This document shows positions 2,556 through 10,897 of a stretch of DNA of 44,728 nt, in pieces (positions within the stretch are counted from its first letter, which is position 1; the number at the start of each line of letters is the position of its first letter). The notes beneath the pieces were generated by a model, which saw only the letters and a program-made list of their open reading frames with translations, had not been told where the DNA came from and did no database searches. A program made the translations under genes and the position numbers. This DNA is from Bdellovibrionales bacterium (GTDB lineage: Bacteria > Bdellovibrionota > Bdellovibrionia > Bdellovibrionales > UBA1609). The stretch covers positions 1 through 44,728 of the forward strand of contig JBPCUO010000026.1 in assembly GCA_051011135.1 (NCBI GenBank), read 5' to 3'.

Positions 2556-3392
2556 ATGAAATGGCAATGGATTTTTTTTCTTTTTCTAATTAACTGTGAC
2601 AGTACTAATGTTTCTAATCCCACTCAAGCTATTAAACCAATTTGTTCTTCTGAGCGAAAAGTACTTACTTTCGAAAATTTATGTAACTATCCAAAAGCTA
2701 AATCTCAACATGCTTATACTAATCATTGGAAAAGTTGGGCGTTTTTTAAAACTCCTTGTAATGGTTCTAACTATAGTAACTTAGCGATAGGAATTGTATC
2801 CTTTGGATTCAAGGGTATCTATGTCAGTTTAGATACTGTTCATATAAAAGCCTGGGCTAATCAAGATTTTTCTTATGCAGGTGAAGTTGTTAATTTACAA
2901 AACTCCTCTATAAAAGTAGGAGCTTTTCAATCCAAATATAGTTTTTATGATAAACATGGAGAACATGTTTCTCCTTATCGATTAGATAATCGAGGTCGTT
3001 TTGAATATGGAAATACAAAATTAGTACAAAATGCTTCTGGTTTAACAAGAGTAGATCCGCGAAGTAATACTAATCAAGTTGTGTTTCTTCCCATCGTTGA
3101 CGATAAAGATGTTGTCCCTACTGCGTCTTATGCCATTAATCTTTTACTTAAAAATAATCAGTCTGGATCTACTATGCGTTTTGATGGGCCTGTTTTAAAA
3201 GACTTTGCAGCTCTATTGCAACAATCTCAAGCGCCTAACACGCAAGAGTTAGGTCTCGGTAAAATGTTAAATCCTGCTCATGAAGGCAGTATCTTTCGTT
3301 GGATTGCAAAAGGCAGAAAACATAACCTTTGCCGTCATAAAATTATAAGCCCTTCATACAGAAATATTCTAAACAATAGGCTCGGTTTATAA
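2556..3392 (+). CDS. Hypothetical exported protein, possible lipoprotein
   Basis: 278-aa ORF; short hydrophobic N-terminus ending in LINC (weak lipobox); no recognised domain. Confidence 0.6.
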   Translation: MKWQWIFFLFLINCDSTNVSNPTQAIKPICSSERKVLTFENLCNYPKAKSQHAYTNHWKSWAFFKTPCNGSNYSNLAIGIVSFGFKGIYVSLDTVHIKAWANQDFSYAGEVVNLQNSSIKVGAFQSKYSFYDKHGEHVSPYRLDNRGRFEYGNTKLVQNASGLTRVDPRSNTNQVVFLPIVDDKDVVPTASYAINLLLKNNQSGSTMRFDGPVLKDFAALLQQSQAPNTQELGLGKMLNPAHEGSIFRWIAKGRKHNLCRHKIISPSYRNILNNRLGL

Positions 3393-3436: not shown

Positions 3437-4009
3437 ATGATTGCTGGATTGTTTTTATTTTTAAAAGGTCTTTTACCTATCGCTTATTTTTTAAAAGGAC
3501 TAAACTTTTTTTTTGGAACTTTTTATAAATTTTCAAAAGGGATTCAAAAAATAGATTTTAATATCCAACTCCTAGATGATTTAAAATTACCCGATGGGCA
3601 TTTTTTAAAAGAAGTAGGTATTTTTGATATTAGAAATGCAGGTTACCCTTCTGTGTCTTTAAAAAATGATAAATCCAAAAATCCTTATCAAGCCATTACT
3701 CTTTATGCAGAACTTAGTTTTTCAAAAAGAATTTTAAGCCAAATCAAAAATAAACTTTTTAAAAGAAAAGAAAGTCACATTAAAGAACTTGCAATTCAAC
3801 TGAATGAAAAACAAGATCCTCAATCTAATGAAGTGTTTTTAAAAAAAGGAGATAAGATCCAAGTCTCTTTTAGTTATAAAAATTGTAAAGATTTTTTTAT
3901 AAATGGAAAATCTTTTTTTGTGGAAGATGTTTTTGGAGAAAGACATTACATAAGAAGAGGAAATATAAAACATATCCAAGAAGTTTTAACTCCTCTTGCT
4001 AAAAAATAA
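3437..4009 (+). CDS. Hypothetical protein with hydrophobic N-terminal anchor
   Basis: 190-aa ORF filling the gap; extended -10 (TGtTATCCT) 6 nt before ATG. Confidence 0.6.
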   Translation: MIAGLFLFLKGLLPIAYFLKGLNFFFGTFYKFSKGIQKIDFNIQLLDDLKLPDGHFLKEVGIFDIRNAGYPSVSLKNDKSKNPYQAITLYAELSFSKRILSQIKNKLFKRKESHIKELAIQLNEKQDPQSNEVFLKKGDKIQVSFSYKNCKDFFINGKSFFVEDVFGERHYIRRGNIKHIQEVLTPLAKK

Positions 4010-4045
4010 AGTTACAAACCTAAATAGGAATTGGGATAAAATAAT

Positions 4046-4960
4046 ATGCCTAGAACAAGAAGAGGTAAGCTCTTAAAAAAATTAAATAAAGATTTTTTTA
4101 AAGCTGTCAAAAAAGGTGATCTGGTTCTAATTCAATCTCTTATTAAACAAGGTGCGGATGTGAATGCTCGATCTTTTAGTTCGCTCTCATCGATCTGGGC
4201 AGTATTGATGTATGTTTTTGGGATTTCTAGATCTTCTAGTTGGTTCTCATCGAGCTGGACAGCATTGATGTATGCTGCTTGGAATAATAATAAAAAAGTT
4301 GCCAAAATCTTGTTGGAACATGGGGCGAATATCCATGCAAAAAATAATAAGGGACGAACAGCTTTAATGTTAGCTGCTTGGAGAGATCATGCAAGTTTTG
4401 CCAAAGTCTTGATCAAAAAGGGCGCTAAGGTGAATGCGAAAGATAATAAGGGACAAACAGCTTTTATGGAGGCTGCTTGGAAAGGTCATTTAAATTTTAT
4501 CAAATTCTTGATGGCACATGGTGCGAATATGAATGCGAAAGATAATAAGGGACGAACAGCTTTGAAGTTAGTTAGTAGTTTGAGATTTAATCCGCTGGAT
4601 GTCAGCAGAGATGCCTCTGATATATATCGAATAGTTCAATTTCTTCGCAAAGCAAGCACTACTAAAAATTATGAAGTTTATAAGGATGTAAAAAACAAAT
4701 GCAAAAGATGCAAAACAAAGATTACAAACCTCGAAGTAAAATCTTGCCCTTCTTGCGGGGTAAAAAATCCATTAAATAATCCTCACCCATTTATTGAGAT
4801 TCTTGTTTTTACTTTTGTTATCCTTAGTTTCATTGTATTGCTTGTCATAGCTTTTTGGGAACCATTTAAAGGAATAAAACTATTAATAGAGTTCTTGGTA
4901 GAATTATTAGTAGATAAAATAATACCTGCTGTTTCTCCCCTTCTTCCTTTCTCAAAATAG
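4046..4960 (+). CDS. Ankyrin-repeat protein with C-terminal Zn ribbon and transmembrane helix (copy 1)
   Basis: Repeats GRTALMLAA...LIKKGAKVNAKD; CKRC-x11-CPSC; hydrophobic helix ILVFTFVILSFIVLLVIAFW. Confidence 0.93.
   Translation: MPRTRRGKLLKKLNKDFFKAVKKGDLVLIQSLIKQGADVNARSFSSLSSIWAVLMYVFGISRSSSWFSSSWTALMYAAWNNNKKVAKILLEHGANIHAKNNKGRTALMLAAWRDHASFAKVLIKKGAKVNAKDNKGQTAFMEAAWKGHLNFIKFLMAHGANMNAKDNKGRTALKLVSSLRFNPLDVSRDASDIYRIVQFLRKASTTKNYEVYKDVKNKCKRCKTKITNLEVKSCPSCGVKNPLNNPHPFIEILVFTFVILSFIVLLVIAFWEPFKGIKLLIEFLVELLVDKIIPAVSPLLPFSK
4169..4288 (+). repeat. In-frame 60-nt tandem duplication within ankyrin gene
   Basis: 4169-4228 vs 4229-4288: 46/60 identical; single copy in the paralogue (from 5881). 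Confidence 0.9.
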
Positions 4961-5054
4961 TTAAAAAAATATCTGCTAGTTCTTCTTTTAAGTTTCAAAT
5001 TCAATTGCAGATTCATCTGTAATAATGAAAAGATTTTTGAATCTATGAATAACT

Positions 5055-5621
5055 CTAGAAATTTACAGAAAGACCTAGGGTTCCATTTAAGTTCAAATAG
5101 GTAACACTTGAATCATTTCCTGGAACATTTGAAGCTATCTTCAGATCAGATCCTAAAATAGAGTCAACTCGAAACACAACTGCTAATCGATTTAAAAAAT
5201 AATATCTCACTGAAGGAGAAATTCCAATCATCGGATGAGCAGAATATCTTCCAAGAGATCTACTGTGATTATAAGCGATACCAGTTTTGACGGACATAGA
5301 AGGAATCAATTTTCTCCGTTTGTTATTATTTATAAAATTATGTGTTGTGATTACACCAATAATTAAAAGATCAGAACTTAGTTCAGTAAAATATCCATAT
5401 TCAAAGTAACCAAAGTTTTTAGAATAAGACATTCCCATTCTGAATCGAGTAAACCCATTGAGAGTTAAAAAGTTTGTAGTTGATTTTAACTTTTTAATAT
5501 CACCTAGATCATAATGTATATGCCCTGCCCCTAAATAGATTGCAAAGTTATTGCTTCGTTTATTTTTATTTGCAAAACCTTGAAAGCAAAAAAAGATTGA
5601 TAATAAAATTAAAGATCTCAT
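5055..5621 (-). CDS. Putative small outer-membrane beta-barrel protein
   Basis: Signal peptide, alternating amphipathic strands rich in G/Y/F, C-terminal ...LNGTLGLSVNF (BAM-type terminal Phe). Confidence 0.65.
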   Translation of the reverse strand: MRSLILLSIFFCFQGFANKNKRSNNFAIYLGAGHIHYDLGDIKKLKSTTNFLTLNGFTRFRMGMSYSKNFGYFEYGYFTELSSDLLIIGVITTHNFINNNKRRKLIPSMSVKTGIAYNHSRSLGRYSAHPMIGISPSVRYYFLNRLAVVFRVDSILGSDLKIASNVPGNDSSVTYLNLNGTLGLSVNF

Positions 5622-5723
5622 AAATGACTTATCGGTTATTTGGCCTTTTAATCAAGGCAAAAACTCTTAATTCTCATATTGAGACTTTTGAAATAAAGCC
5701 TATATAGGGTTTCAAAACAAAGT

Positions 5724-5750
5724 TAAAAAACTAAAAATTGATTCCGATAA
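5724..5750 (+). promoter_or_regulatory. Sigma28 (FliA)-like promoter
   Basis: TAAA-N15-TCCGATAA vs consensus TAAA-N15-GCCGATAA; ends 7 nt before ATG 5758. Confidence 0.45.
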
Positions 5751-5757
5751 TAATAAT

Positions 5758-6585
5758 ATGCCTAGAACAAAAAGAGATAAACTCTTAAATCAATTAAATA
5801 AAGATCTTTTTGAATCTGTCAAAAAAGGTGATCTGGTTTTAACTCAATCTCTTATTAAAAAAGGTGCGAATGTGAATGGTAGATCTTCTCATTGGTTTTT
5901 TCCAAACTGGACAGTATTGATGTATGCAGCTTGGAAAGGATATACAAAATCTGCCAAAGTCTTGTTGGAGCATGGGGCTGATGTCCATGCAAAAAATAAT
6001 AAAGGACGGACAGCTTTAATGGTTGCTGCCAAAAATGATTATCTAAAATTTGCCAAAGTTTTAATTCAAAAAGGTGCAAGGGTTAATGAAACAGATCGTA
6101 AAGGACAGACAGCTTTAATCCATGCCGCTTGGAAAGGTCATTTAAATTTTATAAAATTCTTAATGGAACATGGCGGAAAGGTGAGCATCAGAGATAATAA
6201 GGGACGAACAGCTTCGAGATTAGCTTTTTACTCAAGTCTATTAGATTCTTTAACACGAAGTGGAAGAAGATATGGTCCATCTATTAGCATGACTGAAACG
6301 GTTCAATTTCTTCGTAAAGTAGGCACTACCAAAGATTATATAGCTAAACAAAAGGAAAAAAATAAATGCAAAAGATGCAAAACAAAGATTACAAATCTCG
6401 AAGTAAAATCTTGCCCTTATTGTAATGTAAAAAATCCATTAAATAGTCTTCACCCATTTCTTTCTCTTCTTATTAGCATTGGTTTTATTCTTGCATTTAT
6501 TTTTTTAATTGTAATTGAAGTCTTGGGTTGGTTTAAAATAGATGGAATGCAAATATTAATAGATTTCATACTAAAAAAACCGTAA
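5758..6585 (+). CDS. Ankyrin-repeat protein with C-terminal Zn ribbon and transmembrane helix (copy 2)
   Basis: Clear paralogue of 4046-4960; 6364-6418 matches 4697-4751 at 54/55 nt; CKRC...CPYC; C-terminal hydrophobic helix. Confidence 0.93.
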   Translation: MPRTKRDKLLNQLNKDLFESVKKGDLVLTQSLIKKGANVNGRSSHWFFPNWTVLMYAAWKGYTKSAKVLLEHGADVHAKNNKGRTALMVAAKNDYLKFAKVLIQKGARVNETDRKGQTALIHAAWKGHLNFIKFLMEHGGKVSIRDNKGRTASRLAFYSSLLDSLTRSGRRYGPSISMTETVQFLRKVGTTKDYIAKQKEKNKCKRCKTKITNLEVKSCPYCNVKNPLNSLHPFLSLLISIGFILAFIFLIVIEVLGWFKIDGMQILIDFILKKP

Positions 6586-6723: not shown

Positions 6724-7374
6724 ATGAACAAAATGAAACAAACTTCTTATGCATTGGTCGCGTTGATCATGTTATTTACTTTATCCAACTCAGAAGCATT
6801 TCTTTGGGCATCAAATTCTCTTCTCATAAGAGCAGCTAAGAAAGGAAATGTATCTGAAGTGAAAAAATTACTAGCAGAAGGTGCGGATGTGAATGCGAGA
6901 GATAGTGATGGAAGAACGGCTTTACTAGCGACCATGTTATCGGTGGCAAAAGGAACGCCAGAAGAACAGCTCCAGATTATAAATATATTGCTGGCAGCAG
7001 GTGCAGATGTGAATGTAAGAGGTAATGATTTTGGAAAAACGGCTTTGATGAGATCCGTTGATCCATGGTCGCTTGGATCTGGAAATACCAGGATTATAAA
7101 TGTATTAATAGTAGCAGGTGCAGATCTGAACGCGAGAAGTAACTGGGGAAAAACGGCTTTAATGTATGCCGCCAGTAATTATCTCAAGGCTGTAAATGTA
7201 TTAATAGCAGCAGGTGCAGATGTGAATGCGAAAGATAATGATGGAAAAACAGCTTTAATGTATGCCGCTGGTTCATGGGCAAATGGAAATATCAGGATTG
7301 TAAATGCATTGCTGGCAGCAGGCGCAGATGTGAACGCAAAAGATAATAAGGGAAGAACTTACCTCGATTATTAA
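6724..7374 (+). CDS. Secreted ankyrin-repeat protein
   Basis: Signal peptide (...LSNSEA); about five repeats GKTALMYAA...LLAAGADVNAKD; AAGGAG RBS. Confidence 0.93.
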   Translation: MNKMKQTSYALVALIMLFTLSNSEAFLWASNSLLIRAAKKGNVSEVKKLLAEGADVNARDSDGRTALLATMLSVAKGTPEEQLQIINILLAAGADVNVRGNDFGKTALMRSVDPWSLGSGNTRIINVLIVAGADLNARSNWGKTALMYAASNYLKAVNVLIAAGADVNAKDNDGKTALMYAAGSWANGNIRIVNALLAAGADVNAKDNKGRTYLDY

Positions 7375-7484: not shown

Positions 7485-8039
7485 TTAATTTCGATATGAA
7501 ATTAAAGCCTTTACGACATCTGAATGACCTGCTCTCTCAGCATATTTTAAAGCAGTATGTCCTACATTATCTCTAGCATTCACATCCGCTCCATTAGACA
7601 CTAAATAGTCTACTACTCTTAAAAAACCTCTATCCGCTGTTAACATTAAAGCAGTTCTTCCTTGTATATCTTGCTCATTTATATTCGCTCCTGCAGATAT
7701 TAAAAGAACTGTTAAAGCTATATAACCACCTGAAGATCCACCCATTAAAGCAGTATATCCTACATTATCTCTAGCATTCACATCCGCTCCAATAGCTACT
7801 AAATACTTTACCACATTGTAATAACCATCATAAGCCGCAAGCATTAAAGGAGTCTGTCCTTTTTTATTTCTTGCGTTCATATCTGCACCTTCCGATACAA
7901 GTGTGTTAGCAAGTTCTGCATTTCCTGTTCTAGCTGCTGTTAATAAGCATTGATTTTTAGTTTTAAATATACATGTTATCGATCCCCATGACGGGACTGA
8001 AAATAACAGAATATTTAAAATCATTAATTTTTTTAACAT
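7485..8039 (-). CDS. Secreted ankyrin-repeat protein
   Basis: Signal peptide (...VPSWG); repeats GQTPLMLAA, GADVNARDNVG x2; AGGAG RBS. Confidence 0.93.
   Translation of the reverse strand: MLKKLMILNILLFSVPSWGSITCIFKTKNQCLLTAARTGNAELANTLVSEGADMNARNKKGQTPLMLAAYDGYYNVVKYLVAIGADVNARDNVGYTALMGGSSGGYIALTVLLISAGANINEQDIQGRTALMLTADRGFLRVVDYLVSNGADVNARDNVGHTALKYAERAGHSDVVKALISYRN
7547..7791. repeat. Near-identical 47-nt direct repeat, 198 nt apart (two ankyrin units)
   Basis: 7547-7593 vs 7745-7791 differ at one base. Confidence 0.85.
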
Positions 8040-8081: not shown

Positions 8082-8588
8082 TTACTCAGTTCCATTTGGT
8101 TGAATTACTTTTTGCCAAGTTTCATCAGCTTTTAACATTAAATCATAATGTAAATGCTCAAGCCATTTCTTCTTTGTATTATTCCCCCAAGAATTATAAA
8201 AAAGATAAAGTGACTTTTGTCCGTAAACATTTTCTTCAATGAGAAAAGTATCATAGTTTACAGAAACTCCAGTTTGCCCTTGAGCCATAGCCCAAGCACA
8301 CCATCCTCCATAAGCAGGAATGTACTTCTCAGGGTCAGCATCAAAATTATCTTTATTTTCTTCAGATACAAAATAATAAGTCACATCCATGATCTTTGTA
8401 GAAAACTTTTTAGTACCTTTGGTTCCTCTTTCGATTCCTCTTTCGTGATTTTGAAAATAAGCCACAACATCATATCCCTCTAAAGCAACTCCATTTTTTT
8501 GATTGGAATCTCCAAAGGCACTTGCACCAATTAGTAAACTTGCTACAAAAGTTACAATCAAACTTCCTTTTAAAATTATTGATTTCAT
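8082..8588 (-). CDS. Exported YHS domain-containing protein (Cys form of the YHS (seleno)protein family)
   Basis: GYDVVAYF, YYFVSEENKDNF..DPEKYIPAYGGWCAWAM; signal peptide. Confidence 0.88.
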   Translation of the reverse strand: MKSIILKGSLIVTFVASLLIGASAFGDSNQKNGVALEGYDVVAYFQNHERGIERGTKGTKKFSTKIMDVTYYFVSEENKDNFDADPEKYIPAYGGWCAWAMAQGQTGVSVNYDTFLIEENVYGQKSLYLFYNSWGNNTKKKWLEHLHYDLMLKADETWQKVIQPNGTE

Positions 8589-8731
8589 AAATCCTCCCTT
8601 TATATTTCAAAAAAGTATAACAGAATAATTCCTCTATGAGAATAGTTTGGCCAGAAAAAAAGGTTTCTTTTAAAGAAAAAAGAGATTTTTTAGGAAATTA
8701 TGTCTCATATGTCTCGTATAAGGTTCATTTT

Positions 8732-10897
8732 TTAAAATAAAGCCTCTAATCCTACACCTACCGATTGATGATCTTCCTTTTGTTGATATTTTCCCTCATA
8801 AAAGACACCTAATTTAAAACGACTATGAATTTGATAAGATAGCAACATTTCTAATTTATTTTTGTAGATTTTAAAATCTTTTGTTTTGAGCTCATATTCC
8901 ATATCTAAACCCAATCGAGATATGATAGGAATTTCTTTTTCTAATTCTACTTCTAATTCTTTATTTGTTTTTATCAAAGCTTCCAAATAGATCAATAAAG
9001 GAAGCTTATAAGTTAAACCTAAAACTCCTAACCATTTTTGATCCTGATAAAAAGCTCCTCCTAATAGGTGCATATTCTTAGAAACTTTTCGACTTGCTTT
9101 TGTTTCCAGCTTAAAAGCTTTAGGATCTTTTAAAGATTCGAAGTCTTTAAAAGATTTAAAATCTTTAAATTCAATGCCGTCCACTTTTCCTTTGATGGAG
9201 AATTTTAATTTTTTCTTTTTAGCACTCCATTTTATTTCAGATTGATTAGTGAATAAAAGTAAATGGGTTTTAAAAAACCAACTTGAATCTTTAATAAAAT
9301 CTTTAGAAAATAATTTTTCTTCTTCTATTAAGTCTTGAGGTCTTTTAAAATCCTCGTACTTAATGAGTCGACCCATTCCCATTTTCATATGGTAGAGATT
9401 ATGACAATGAAACATCCATAGACCTGGTGCATTCATATAAGCTTCAATAGTAATTTTTTCAAAAGGTTTGACATCTACAGTATGAAATAAAGGAGAATAA
9501 TTTTTTTGACCATTGAGAACGCGAAAAAAATGACCATGAAGATGCATAGGGTGAGTCATCATTGTTTTGTTTGCAAAATGAAAGCGAACAACATCACCTT
9601 TTTTAACATTAATATATTTATCTTGTGAAAAAGTTTTACCATTTAAAGACCAAGTATAATTCGACATGCTTCCACTTAATTCTAAATCGATATCATGGCG
9701 AGGGTATTTGTTGCTGTAGTTAGTTTTTGTAAGAGATTTTAACATGTTATAATCCAAGCTTTTTTTCATAGATTGAGTTTTTATTTTGGAGTGATCATGT
9801 TTCATCTTAGAATGATCATGTTTCATTTTGGAGTGTTTCATCTTGGAGTGATCACCATGTTTCATCTTAGAGTGATCATGGTCCATCTTGTAAGGATTTG
9901 GTTTTGCAAAAGAAGGAGCTTTTTCATATTTTTGATCCTTTCCAAAAATTAAACTGCCATGACCTGTAAAATCACTTGCCGTGGCTCGAAATTCTAAACC
10001 TTGCGTGATTGGAGGCATTTTAAAAGACAAATCATAAGTTTCACCCATGCCTAAAAAAACTTCATTCACACGGACAGGTGAAACGCCCATTCCATCTTTT
10101 GAAATGACTTTAAAAAATCTATGCTGACCTAAGTTTAAATAAAAATGAGTAGAAGCTGCAGCGTTAATAACTCTTAACCGAACTCTATCTCCTGATTTAA
10201 TTTTAGAAAAAGTAGCCTGCTGTTTTCCATTAATTAAAAAAGCATCATAGCCCACATCACTTAAATCCATAACCCCCATACCTGTCCATTCTCCTTTAAT
10301 AAAATCTTTAAAAGAAGATTTGAAAATGGCATCTAAAAGCGATGGAAAGAATTTTTTCTTAAAAGAATAATACTCTCCCTCTTTTTTAAGATTTTTTAAA
10401 ACTTGTATGGGTTTTTCATTGGTCCAATCACTAAGAACAGCCACTAGATCATGTTTAAAATAATATCTAGGTCGAGGCTCTTCAATAACAATAGCCCCAT
10501 ATAAGCCTCTTTGTTCTTGAAGGTTTGTATGAGAGTGGTACCAATAAGTCCCTGCGTGTTTGATAGGAAATTGAAAAGTAAAAGTTTCGCTAGCTTGTAT
10601 CAGTTTATTGTTAGAAAAAGCAGGGCCATCCATATTCCAAGGAACAAGAATTCCATGCCAATGAAGAGTGGTTGGTTCATTGGTTTTATTAGTCACATGA
10701 ATAACAGCGGTATCTCCTAGTTTAAATCGTAAAGTAGGTGCAGGAATAGAGCCATTAATCGCTAAAGCATGTTTAACATCTTTTCCTGTGAGATTAACCA
10801 GCTTATTTTCAACAGTTAAATGATAAACCTGATTCTTACTATAAGAAGAAAAAGTGAAAAAAATAATAAAAACAAAAAAAGCAGAAGTAAATCTCAT
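8732..10897 (-). CDS. Multicopper oxidase (CopA/PcoA-like) with His/Met-rich insert and barrel-like C-terminal domain
   Basis: All four Cu motifs: HWHG, WYHSH, HPMHLHGH, HCHNLYHMKMGM; signal peptide. Confidence 0.93.
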   Translation of the reverse strand: MRFTSAFFVFIIFFTFSSYSKNQVYHLTVENKLVNLTGKDVKHALAINGSIPAPTLRFKLGDTAVIHVTNKTNEPTTLHWHGILVPWNMDGPAFSNNKLIQASETFTFQFPIKHAGTYWYHSHTNLQEQRGLYGAIVIEEPRPRYYFKHDLVAVLSDWTNEKPIQVLKNLKKEGEYYSFKKKFFPSLLDAIFKSSFKDFIKGEWTGMGVMDLSDVGYDAFLINGKQQATFSKIKSGDRVRLRVINAAASTHFYLNLGQHRFFKVISKDGMGVSPVRVNEVFLGMGETYDLSFKMPPITQGLEFRATASDFTGHGSLIFGKDQKYEKAPSFAKPNPYKMDHDHSKMKHGDHSKMKHSKMKHDHSKMKHDHSKIKTQSMKKSLDYNMLKSLTKTNYSNKYPRHDIDLELSGSMSNYTWSLNGKTFSQDKYINVKKGDVVRFHFANKTMMTHPMHLHGHFFRVLNGQKNYSPLFHTVDVKPFEKITIEAYMNAPGLWMFHCHNLYHMKMGMGRLIKYEDFKRPQDLIEEEKLFSKDFIKDSSWFFKTHLLLFTNQSEIKWSAKKKKLKFSIKGKVDGIEFKDFKSFKDFESLKDPKAFKLETKASRKVSKNMHLLGGAFYQDQKWLGVLGLTYKLPLLIYLEALIKTNKELEVELEKEIPIISRLGLDMEYELKTKDFKIYKNKLEMLLSYQIHSRFKLGVFYEGKYQQKEDHQSVGVGLEALF
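9787..9888 (-). repeat. Coding minisatellite (HDHSKMK-type units of 15-24 nt)
   Basis: MDHDHSKMKHGDHSKMKHSKMKHDHSKMKHDHSK; repeated gatcatgtttcat-like units on the + strand. Confidence 0.85.

Follow-up and report, generated by a model that had tools for sequence, protein, structure and literature searches.

Introduction

LapB (YciM) of Escherichia coli is described (PMC11046580) as an adaptor that tethers a cytoplasmic client to the membrane, built from one inner-membrane helix, a cytoplasmic helical-repeat scaffold and a metal ribbon with two CxxC motifs; there its repeats are of the TPR type, its anchor is N-terminal, its ribbon is C-terminal, and it is conserved and essential. In a 44,728-nt stretch of DNA from a Bdellovibrionales bacterium (contig JBPCUO010000026.1, assembly GCA_051011135.1; hereafter the window, meaning the whole stretch analyzed), two neighboring genes, A and B, encode proteins with comparable parts (Table 1). 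They differ from LapB in having ankyrin repeats, a C-terminal anchor and a membrane-adjacent ribbon, in giving no match to PF18073, and in being confined to one species, and on the features compared the likeness is one of analogy, not homology. We read A and B as species-restricted paralogs whose products are predicted to be tail-anchored, cytoplasm-facing, membrane-tethered binders or adaptors, and the small outer-membrane β-barrel gene between them as an unrelated neighbor, with about even confidence in this reading.

The ankyrins of sponge symbionts and ANKp of Ankyphages have (bioRxiv 10.1101/608950) short consensus-like arrays as in A and B, together with a signal peptide and without a transmembrane (TM) helix or ribbon; the ankyrins of the genus follow the same pattern (TM helix or ribbon in 0/52 from kin genomes), and A and B reverse it. 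Bd3460 of Bdellovibrio bacteriovorus, as described in PMC4686830, is a small ankyrin binder like A and B, but is periplasmic, carries a signal peptide, adjoins its DD-endopeptidase target and has no ribbon or TM helix. For E. coli, PMC6794478 describes insertion of tail-anchored proteins into the cell's own inner membrane by SRP/YidC/DnaK, and names DjlC and Flk, in which, as in A and B, a single C-terminal TM helix is the sole targeting signal; their soluble domains are unrelated to those of A and B, and the tail of A exceeds a minimal anchor.

Zinc-ribbon-TM proteins (PF13248, PF13240, PF12773; protein P0011; PHROG 14275 and 38187) resemble A and B in placing CxxC-x10/11-CxxC shortly before a single TM helix, but their ribbon is N-terminal, a further domain or nothing follows the helix, and the sampled cases contain no ankyrin. 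The closest hint of ankyrin joined to a ribbon elsewhere is a 58-member cluster of the ESM Atlas (Spirochaetota wherever assigned) that combines ankyrin with DZR; only 124 of 256 features are in common, and neither domain order nor TM helices are given there. Animal DZANK1 presumably also joins ankyrin to zinc ribbon, with the ribbons first and no TM helix.

Genes A and B

The A and B proteins are paralogs with 63% identity, and their alignment begins 43–44 nt 5′ of the start codons (blastn 4003 versus 5714), close to the 40 nt given in an earlier reading of the window made from its letters alone (the sequence-only reading). That reading had also described about five ankyrin units, no signal peptide and a C-terminal TM helix in each protein, all of which Pfam, hydropathy and structure modeling bear out. 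The ankyrin part opens with an N-cap, continues through three full internal repeats and closes with a degenerate fifth unit plus C-cap; tandem 33-residue repeats above the Pfam cut-off place both proteins in the ankyrin-repeat family (PF12796/PF00023; Ank_2, ~91 bits against a cut-off of 27.3, E ~1e-26), and DARPins were the best structural matches. The AlphaFold model of A contains the helices of the ankyrin units (mean pLDDT 66.7); the models of A and B were built on alignments of 4 and 1 sequences, respectively, and are of low confidence. One ankyrin face of A is lined with tryptophan (W71, W79, W112, W145), three of the four being kept in B, and the internal repeats of both proteins are 42–50% identical to ankyrin proteins of the own genome and its kin. 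The earlier account omitted a tandem duplication in A; residues 42–70 hold 7 of the 23 strain differences in this protein.

Contigs from metagenome runs X1–X3 span the barrel–B junction, and one X3 contig covers the last part of A, the barrel gene and the junction into B; because these contigs bridge the junctions, the A–barrel–B arrangement is not an assembly artifact. The best-matching runs may be the source sample itself. Among the contigs mapped on the region, none carried a joint deleting the barrel gene between A and B, and an apparent joint from 6459 to 5050 was an A copy mapping onto B, not a true joint.

Table 1. Coordinates of genes, segments and neighboring features in the window
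Feature	Position	Strand	Description
Gene A	4046..4960	+	304 aa; basic N-terminal extension, five ankyrin units, CxxC-x11-CxxC, TM helix, 33-aa amphipathic tail
Gene B	5758..6585	+	275 aa; architecture as gene A, 19-aa tail
Leader upstream of A	4003..4045	+	Part of the duplicated unit; shares bases with the stop of the 190-aa open reading frame
Leader upstream of B	5714..5757	+	Paralogous to 4003–4045
Tandem duplication in A	4157..4276	+	60 nt, 47/60 identical; adds 20 residues
Four-cysteine knot core of A	4697..4751	+	54/55 nt identical to B
Four-cysteine knot core of B	6364..6418	+	54/55 nt identical to A
Predicted TM helix of A	4793..4858	+	Residues 250–271; preceding 40 residues, 9 K/R versus 3 D/E
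Predicted TM helix of B	6454..6525	+	Residues 233–256; preceding 40 residues, 10 K/R versus 3 D/E
Small outer-membrane β-barrel gene	5055..5621	-	188 aa; convergent with A, divergent from B (136-bp gap)
55-nt segment	5023..5077	+	50/55 identical to G000:C6:1135-1189 (E 6e-14); A–barrel gap and last codons of the barrel gene
Signal-peptide-type ankyrin gene	6724..7374	+	216 aa; usual architecture in this genome
Signal-peptide-type ankyrin gene	7485..8039	-	184 aa
Tyrosine integrase (PF00589), contig start	54..962		rpsD and rpmE lie between the integrase and the ankyrin cluster

The four-cysteine knot

Knot residues 217–235 of A are identical in B at 19/19 positions, and the near-invariance of CxxC-x11-CxxC at the nucleotide level, claimed from the letters, was confirmed (54/55). 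Compared with codon shuffles, a run of this length is unusual, with p = 0.004 using all aligned codons and p = 0.034 using the well-aligned parts, for a segment chosen post hoc. The cysteine pattern (CKRC-x11-CPSC / CPYC), with the spacing of two CxxC motifs, is present in 4/4 sequences (A, B and the strain orthologs), and between strains the knot has no changes. Pfam scores were below cut-off, at 15.6–17.4 bits for DZR (cut-off 27.3; E 0.005–0.02) and 11.4 for Zn_ribbon_3 (cut-off 27). The C-terminal part matched P0011, an 84-aa double-ribbon-TM protein and the sole outside relative of the cysteine motif among 1.84 billion representatives, at E 1.4e-4, with a pairwise HHalign probability of 95.9 over ribbon and helix; weak matches were also obtained between the ribbon-TM part and the N-termini of phage PHROG families without known function (E 3e-4), and a sequence search of the knot-TM part in PDB gave no informative match. 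Of the zinc module proposed earlier, the cysteine spacing stands, whereas Pfam cut-offs are not reached and the AlphaFold models, at low confidence, lack a ribbon. Judged by spacing and remote similarity, the knot is likely a zinc ribbon, and would bind zinc or iron.

A ribbon followed by a TM helix is common in the order, where it was found in 11/31 motif-bearing open reading frames (ORFs) at the 30 best PF13248 loci, with ankyrin in none, and ribbon-TM is a common, generic module. An order-wide conserved family of ~320–380 codons carries a CPxCGFxQPxDxxCxxCG ribbon at the N-terminus and a single TM helix after it (loci L052, L053, L056, L057, L061, L062, L067, L068, L070, L072 and L074). This family (14 sequences) was considered as donor of the module but not accepted, its profile finding neither A nor B in the own genome at E<1; no member was found in the own genome by profile search, and pairwise HHalign gave a probability of 85.

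Membrane anchor and topology

Each protein has one C-terminal hydrophobic helix (KD19 3.24 in A and 3.07 in B), followed by 33 residues to the C-terminal end in A and 19 in B, and neither has an N-terminal hydrophobic stretch (KD11 1.14 and 0.66, against at least 2.2 in the other 18/20 ankyrin ORFs). Signal peptides were called by this hydropathy rule rather than by SignalP, for ORFs with an intact start only; under the same rule, both proteins have the single C-terminal TM helix and missing signal peptide of tail-anchored proteins. Because there is no signal peptide, basic residues precede the helix and the tail is short, the predicted topology is N-in, and A and B are most likely tail-anchored in the own inner membrane, with ankyrin and ribbon parts cytoplasmic.

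Searches with six marker families in the own genome (G000; 1.2 Mb, 32% GC, 91% complete, 103 contigs) gave no match for the type III secretion system (T3SS)/flagellar gate, VirD4, VirB4, TssC or a phage sheath, and TrwB matched below cut-off only. The systems present are of the type II secretion system (T2SS)/type IV pilus/Tad kind, with above-cut-off matches to ATPases (7) and secretins (4). Such systems move periplasmic substrates, not cytoplasmic proteins, and could serve the signal-peptide ankyrins. Because no T3SS, type IV (T4SS) or type VI (T6SS) secretion marker was found in this 91%-complete genome, the own inner membrane is the most likely place of A and B.

Copy number, ankyrin repertoire and distribution

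The C-terminal part of A/B is present in two copies only in the own genome, which answers the paralog count that the sequence-only reading had left to be made. A second strain has orthologs of A, B, the barrel gene and both upstream ORFs, with the A and B frames intact; run X3 carries the same variants as this strain and is thus not independent of it. The own genome contains 25 ORF fragments with ankyrin similarity, and ankyrin matches occur in 10/10 genus genomes, at 9 to 168 each, which amounts to an expanded repertoire in the genus. After leaving out the 5/25 fragments without an intact start, a hydrophobic, signal-peptide-like start was found in 18/20, A and B being the exceptions, and a C-terminal helix in 2/16 complete ankyrin ORFs, A and B only. 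Twenty regions chosen around best hits in 8/9 kin genomes supplied 52 complete ankyrin ORFs (28 from one genome), of which 45/52 had a hydrophobic start and 0/52 a C-terminal helix or two-knuckle motif.

Further tandem clusters of signal-peptide ankyrin genes lie elsewhere in the own genome (C51:1-3552, C48:2-3455 and C80:15583-16892). In a related genome, G008:C1:1277000-1299000 (L076-L077) holds ~17 ankyrin genes of the signal-peptide type in tandem, which have the start MKIFLISIFFLF and a C-terminal ...KCRESF motif in common. In G006 and G008, many ankyrin proteins finish with similar cysteine motifs (CRNIF, CAKTF, CLKIF), which may act in export or processing.

The ankyrin repertoire bears on whether A and B are host effectors, as the sequence-only reading had suggested, which would leave the cell (by a missing secretion system, vesicles or lysis), tail-anchor in host membranes and bind host proteins. 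Many ankyrin genes are present in the genus, A and B have a basic N-terminal extension, and a near-identical strain is represented in a sponge metagenome (run X6, pieces ~94–99% alike); the best-matching runs, by contrast, are labelled cave metagenome, so that a sponge is only a candidate habitat. Reduced, ankyrin-rich Bdellovibrionota from a sponge are described in PMC9944714, cited here only as an example of the kind, and about one third of T4SS effectors have TM segments according to PMC12981334. Against export to a host stand the lack of secretion and sheath marker matches in the 91%-complete genome, the signal-peptide-like start of most own and kin ankyrin ORFs but not of A and B, and the signal peptide and lack of TM helix in ANKp; the Legionella Dot/Icm Ank families scored 15–63 bits against cut-offs of 500–1400, covering generic repeats only. 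On this evidence we consider a host-effector role unlikely.

Self-protection, also suggested earlier, would have A and B neutralize an own lytic or toxic enzyme before its export. Bd3460 is an ankyrin self-protection protein (PMC4686830), but it is signal-peptide-borne, periplasmic and beside its endopeptidase, none of which holds for A and B, and no toxin, hydrolase or DD-endopeptidase ORF was recognized next to them, which makes such a role very unlikely.

No relative with the same architecture was found outside the species. The C-terminal 100 residues gave matches in 0/40 relatives, and the full profile in 0/5 further genomes at 1e-40. Searches of B residues 150–275 and 115–260 against 5.8 billion proteins returned the strain ortholog and A only (2 hits among 88 and 142 candidates, lengths 151–482 only). 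When the C-terminal 100 aa were searched among 1.84 billion representatives, 3 hits were obtained, P0001, P0011 (DZR-TM) and P0012, the last of which (Ig repeats) was rejected as a relative and judged spurious. With a four-sequence profile, a two-knuckle motif or C-terminal TM helix was seen in 0/118 non-self proteins among the 120 of 7894 hits listed. Related-locus scans of genome and metagenome contigs confirmed none, though the own and very near genomes may lie outside the scan. A DNA pattern for the knot matched 17 + 14 + 0 loci (28/31 in frame), with ankyrin within 1.2 kb in 0 and a TM helix within 45 residues in 1; a looser pattern gave 49 matches in 10 genus genomes, and among 30 of these only A and B combined ankyrin motifs with a TM helix. 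These homolog searches were limited by words or patterns, and a distant family could escape them. In the open literature searched, an ankyrin–zinc ribbon–TM or tail-anchored bacterial ankyrin architecture was named in no listed title or opening of an abstract.

Among the sequences searched, A and B are restricted to strains of their own species. The remark that the architecture was not recognized held up across the protein, locus and pattern searches, and the ankyrin-ribbon-TM combination appears new; it is a domain shuffle of two common modules, in two genes of one species.

Variation and selection

A and B have a synonymous divergence (dS) of 0.42 and a nonsynonymous divergence (dN) of 0.255, dN/dS between the paralogs being 0.45–0.61; the ankyrin part has dS 0.39 and dN 0.17 (dN/dS 0.45), the knot core 0 replacement and 2 silent differences, and the linker, spacer, TM helix and tail pN of 0.37–0.55. 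Comparison of the strains gives 14 replacement and 7 silent changes for B (pN/pS 0.54) and 1 and 5, respectively, for the barrel gene (pN/pS 0.06; 1/188 residues, ~ten times slower), the count covering 33 of the 35 differences on the contig, with 3 at indel codons and 3 intergenic excluded. Residue differences between strains were similar in A (23/304), B (18/275) and an unrelated 278-aa neighbor (21/278). These values speak for purifying selection on A and B, strict at the knot and loose elsewhere. The dN/dS comparison gave no sign of positive selection, either between paralogs (dN/dS <1) or between strains (pN/pS 0.54).

The sequence-only reading had differences cluster after the AA(W/K) helix of the repeats and described a family of variable binders on a constant zinc module. 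Variation is indeed uneven, but the clustering is borderline, at 9/18 in the six positions after the helix against 21/81 elsewhere in the internal repeats (Fisher p = 0.053), and in the third internal repeat A and B are identical there. These positions include those randomized in DARPin libraries, and vary in any ankyrin. As for the family, tail anchor and invariant knot were upheld, while it amounts to two genes and positive selection was not seen. Between strains, changes in the internal repeats fell after the AA helix in 4/6 cases in B (p = 0.012, post hoc) and 1/5 in A.

The strain changes in B bear on a further suggestion, that A and B are phage sensors whose ankyrin face recognizes a cytoplasmic phage protein and whose knot and helix oligomerize or recruit a membrane effector. 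The predicted orientation toward the cytoplasm agrees with this, weak matches link the ribbon-TM part to phage families, and ankyrins occur in defense models (MzaA, PDC-M72A). However, the NCBIfam and PADLOC hits cover generic repeats only, those of PADLOC being equally strong for the secreted ankyrin neighbors; the full-length match and partner genes of MZA and PDC-M72 were not found; there is no toxic or other effector domain and only one TM helix; and no defense gene was recognized among the neighbors, the integrase being separated by rpsD and rpmE. The strain changes in A, the dN/dS below 1 and the lack of a knot-pattern match in viral contigs also count against sensing of phage, which we regard as decidedly unlikely. 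A broader version, to which we give a small chance, would make A and B DARPin-like inward receptors whose diversifying face senses a phage or regulatory protein and whose invariant knot docks a shared effector or A/B hetero-oligomers.

Alternatively, A and B would have come from gene shuffling in a small genome prone to drift and be under weak selection, their function slight or redundant. Their restriction to one species, the pN/pS of 0.54, the tolerated 20-residue insertion in a fast-changing region, and a locus that is variable downstream of rpmE among kin and has the possible 55-nt scar beside the barrel gene are consistent with this. Synonymous divergence is also patchy (~2/27 sites at the 5′ end against ~50/137 elsewhere, p = 0.003), and patchy gene conversion is a possible explanation for part of the 'constant' segments; as cause of the 54/55 run it found no significant support, silent divergence in the knot being not significantly low (2/19 against 31/136 codons, p = 0.37). 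On the other side, neither frame is broken in the two strains or by paralog divergence of dS ~0.4, all indels observed keep the frame, and the knot has 0 replacement against 2 silent differences between paralogs and none between strains. A weakly selected origin of this kind is, in our judgment, quite improbable.

The barrel gene and surrounding locus

The oppositely oriented small β-barrel gene reported earlier between A and B was recovered, its product having an outer-membrane β-barrel fold in the ESM Atlas (TM-score 0.72–0.80), a signal-peptide-like start and a C-terminal Phe (...LSVNF), as in small barrels of the OMP_b-brl (PF13505-like) kind; it gave no hit in Pfam. Identification as the lipid A deacylase PagL was rejected, since the last 50 residues contain no His and PagL made up 20% of one Atlas cluster; we take the PagL motif to be a His-Ser catalytic motif in the C-terminal strand region. 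Homologs were found in 3/9 genus genomes and 3/80 family genomes, representing four distinct loci, which adjoin rnc/serA or rluB/lspA-type genes and have no ankyrin ORF within ~1.5 kb on either side (0/4). The own genome contains closer orthologs of the kin barrels on contigs C79 (44%) and C41 (40–43%), and the barrel of the window, 25–34% identical to the kin barrels, is thus an extra (third) paralog of the small-barrel family. Because the four kin loci have no ankyrin neighbors, the linkage to A and B that had been raised is likely incidental, the barrel being an unrelated neighbor. A single trans-envelope system of A, barrel and B is hardly credible: the three genes lie side by side and are found together in the second strain as well, and the divergent gap is common to barrel and B, but in addition to the kin loci, the genes lie on opposite strands, periplasmic tails of 19–33 aa are too short to cross the periplasm, and the barrel evolves far more slowly.

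The C6 copy of the 55-nt segment forms the 3′ terminus of an ORF of 220 codons for a membrane protein, and its near-identity to the segment beside the barrel may mark a local rearrangement scar or a shared terminator region. The region downstream of rpmE varies among kin, and no ankyrin gene was found near rpmE in 9 kin, 4 of 9 on short contigs. No tRNA gene was found within the window, and a promoter/terminator scan gave 22 against 21.5 in shuffles. Upstream of A, positions 2556–3392 encode a 278-aa probable exported protein without Pfam hit, which varies strongly between strains and has homologs in 4/9 genus genomes and 0/21 other relatives (it may be genus-specific), and positions 3437–4009 a 190-aa ORF with a hydrophobic N-terminus and one homolog in 30 relatives (G007), located just 5′ of an ORF judged from its sequence to be DNA-methylase-like. 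Adjoining the ankyrin cluster on the other side, positions 8082–10897 encode a YHS-domain protein and a 721-aa multicopper-oxidase-like protein with His-rich repeats, for which copper handling is likely.

Discussion

In the adaptor reading of A and B that we favor, an ankyrin gene would have been fused to a generic zinc-ribbon-plus-TM module and then duplicated. The C-terminal helix would fix the complex at the inner membrane, the tryptophan-lined ankyrin groove would hold a cytoplasmic partner protein there, and the knot may stiffen the stalk or spacer, or serve both copies as a shared docking site, with A and B diverging in partner or affinity. The logic would be that of LapB by analogy, a repeat scaffold joined to a CxxC ribbon and one TM helix.

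Several observations weigh against this interpretation. With the genome 91% complete and in 103 contigs, a secretion system could be absent from the assembly. Both AlphaFold models, of low confidence (pLDDT 56–69) and from shallow alignments, place a helix across the first CxxC, and A and B have no LapB-type ribbon match, the only PF18073 hit being a RadA-like ORF on contig C71. The strain pN/pS of B is far above that of the barrel gene (Fisher p = 0.06), which relaxed constraint would explain no less well than conservation as an adaptor. Nor can an adaptor of the cytoplasm that occurs in a single species have a core function.

The reach of the finding is small, comprising two genes in one uncultured species with no conserved neighborhood, and would gain weight should sensors of different targets turn out to dock through the same invariant knot. 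If the inward-receptor version were true, A and B would be a miniature repertoire of variable sensors on a constant stalk, derived from a secreted ankyrin arsenal turned inward. Symbiont ankyrins are routinely counted as host-directed 'eukaryote-like proteins', and the A/B pair is an exception within such a repertoire; ankyrin counts can include proteins predicted to face inward. A and B also catch a new domain combination soon after its origin.

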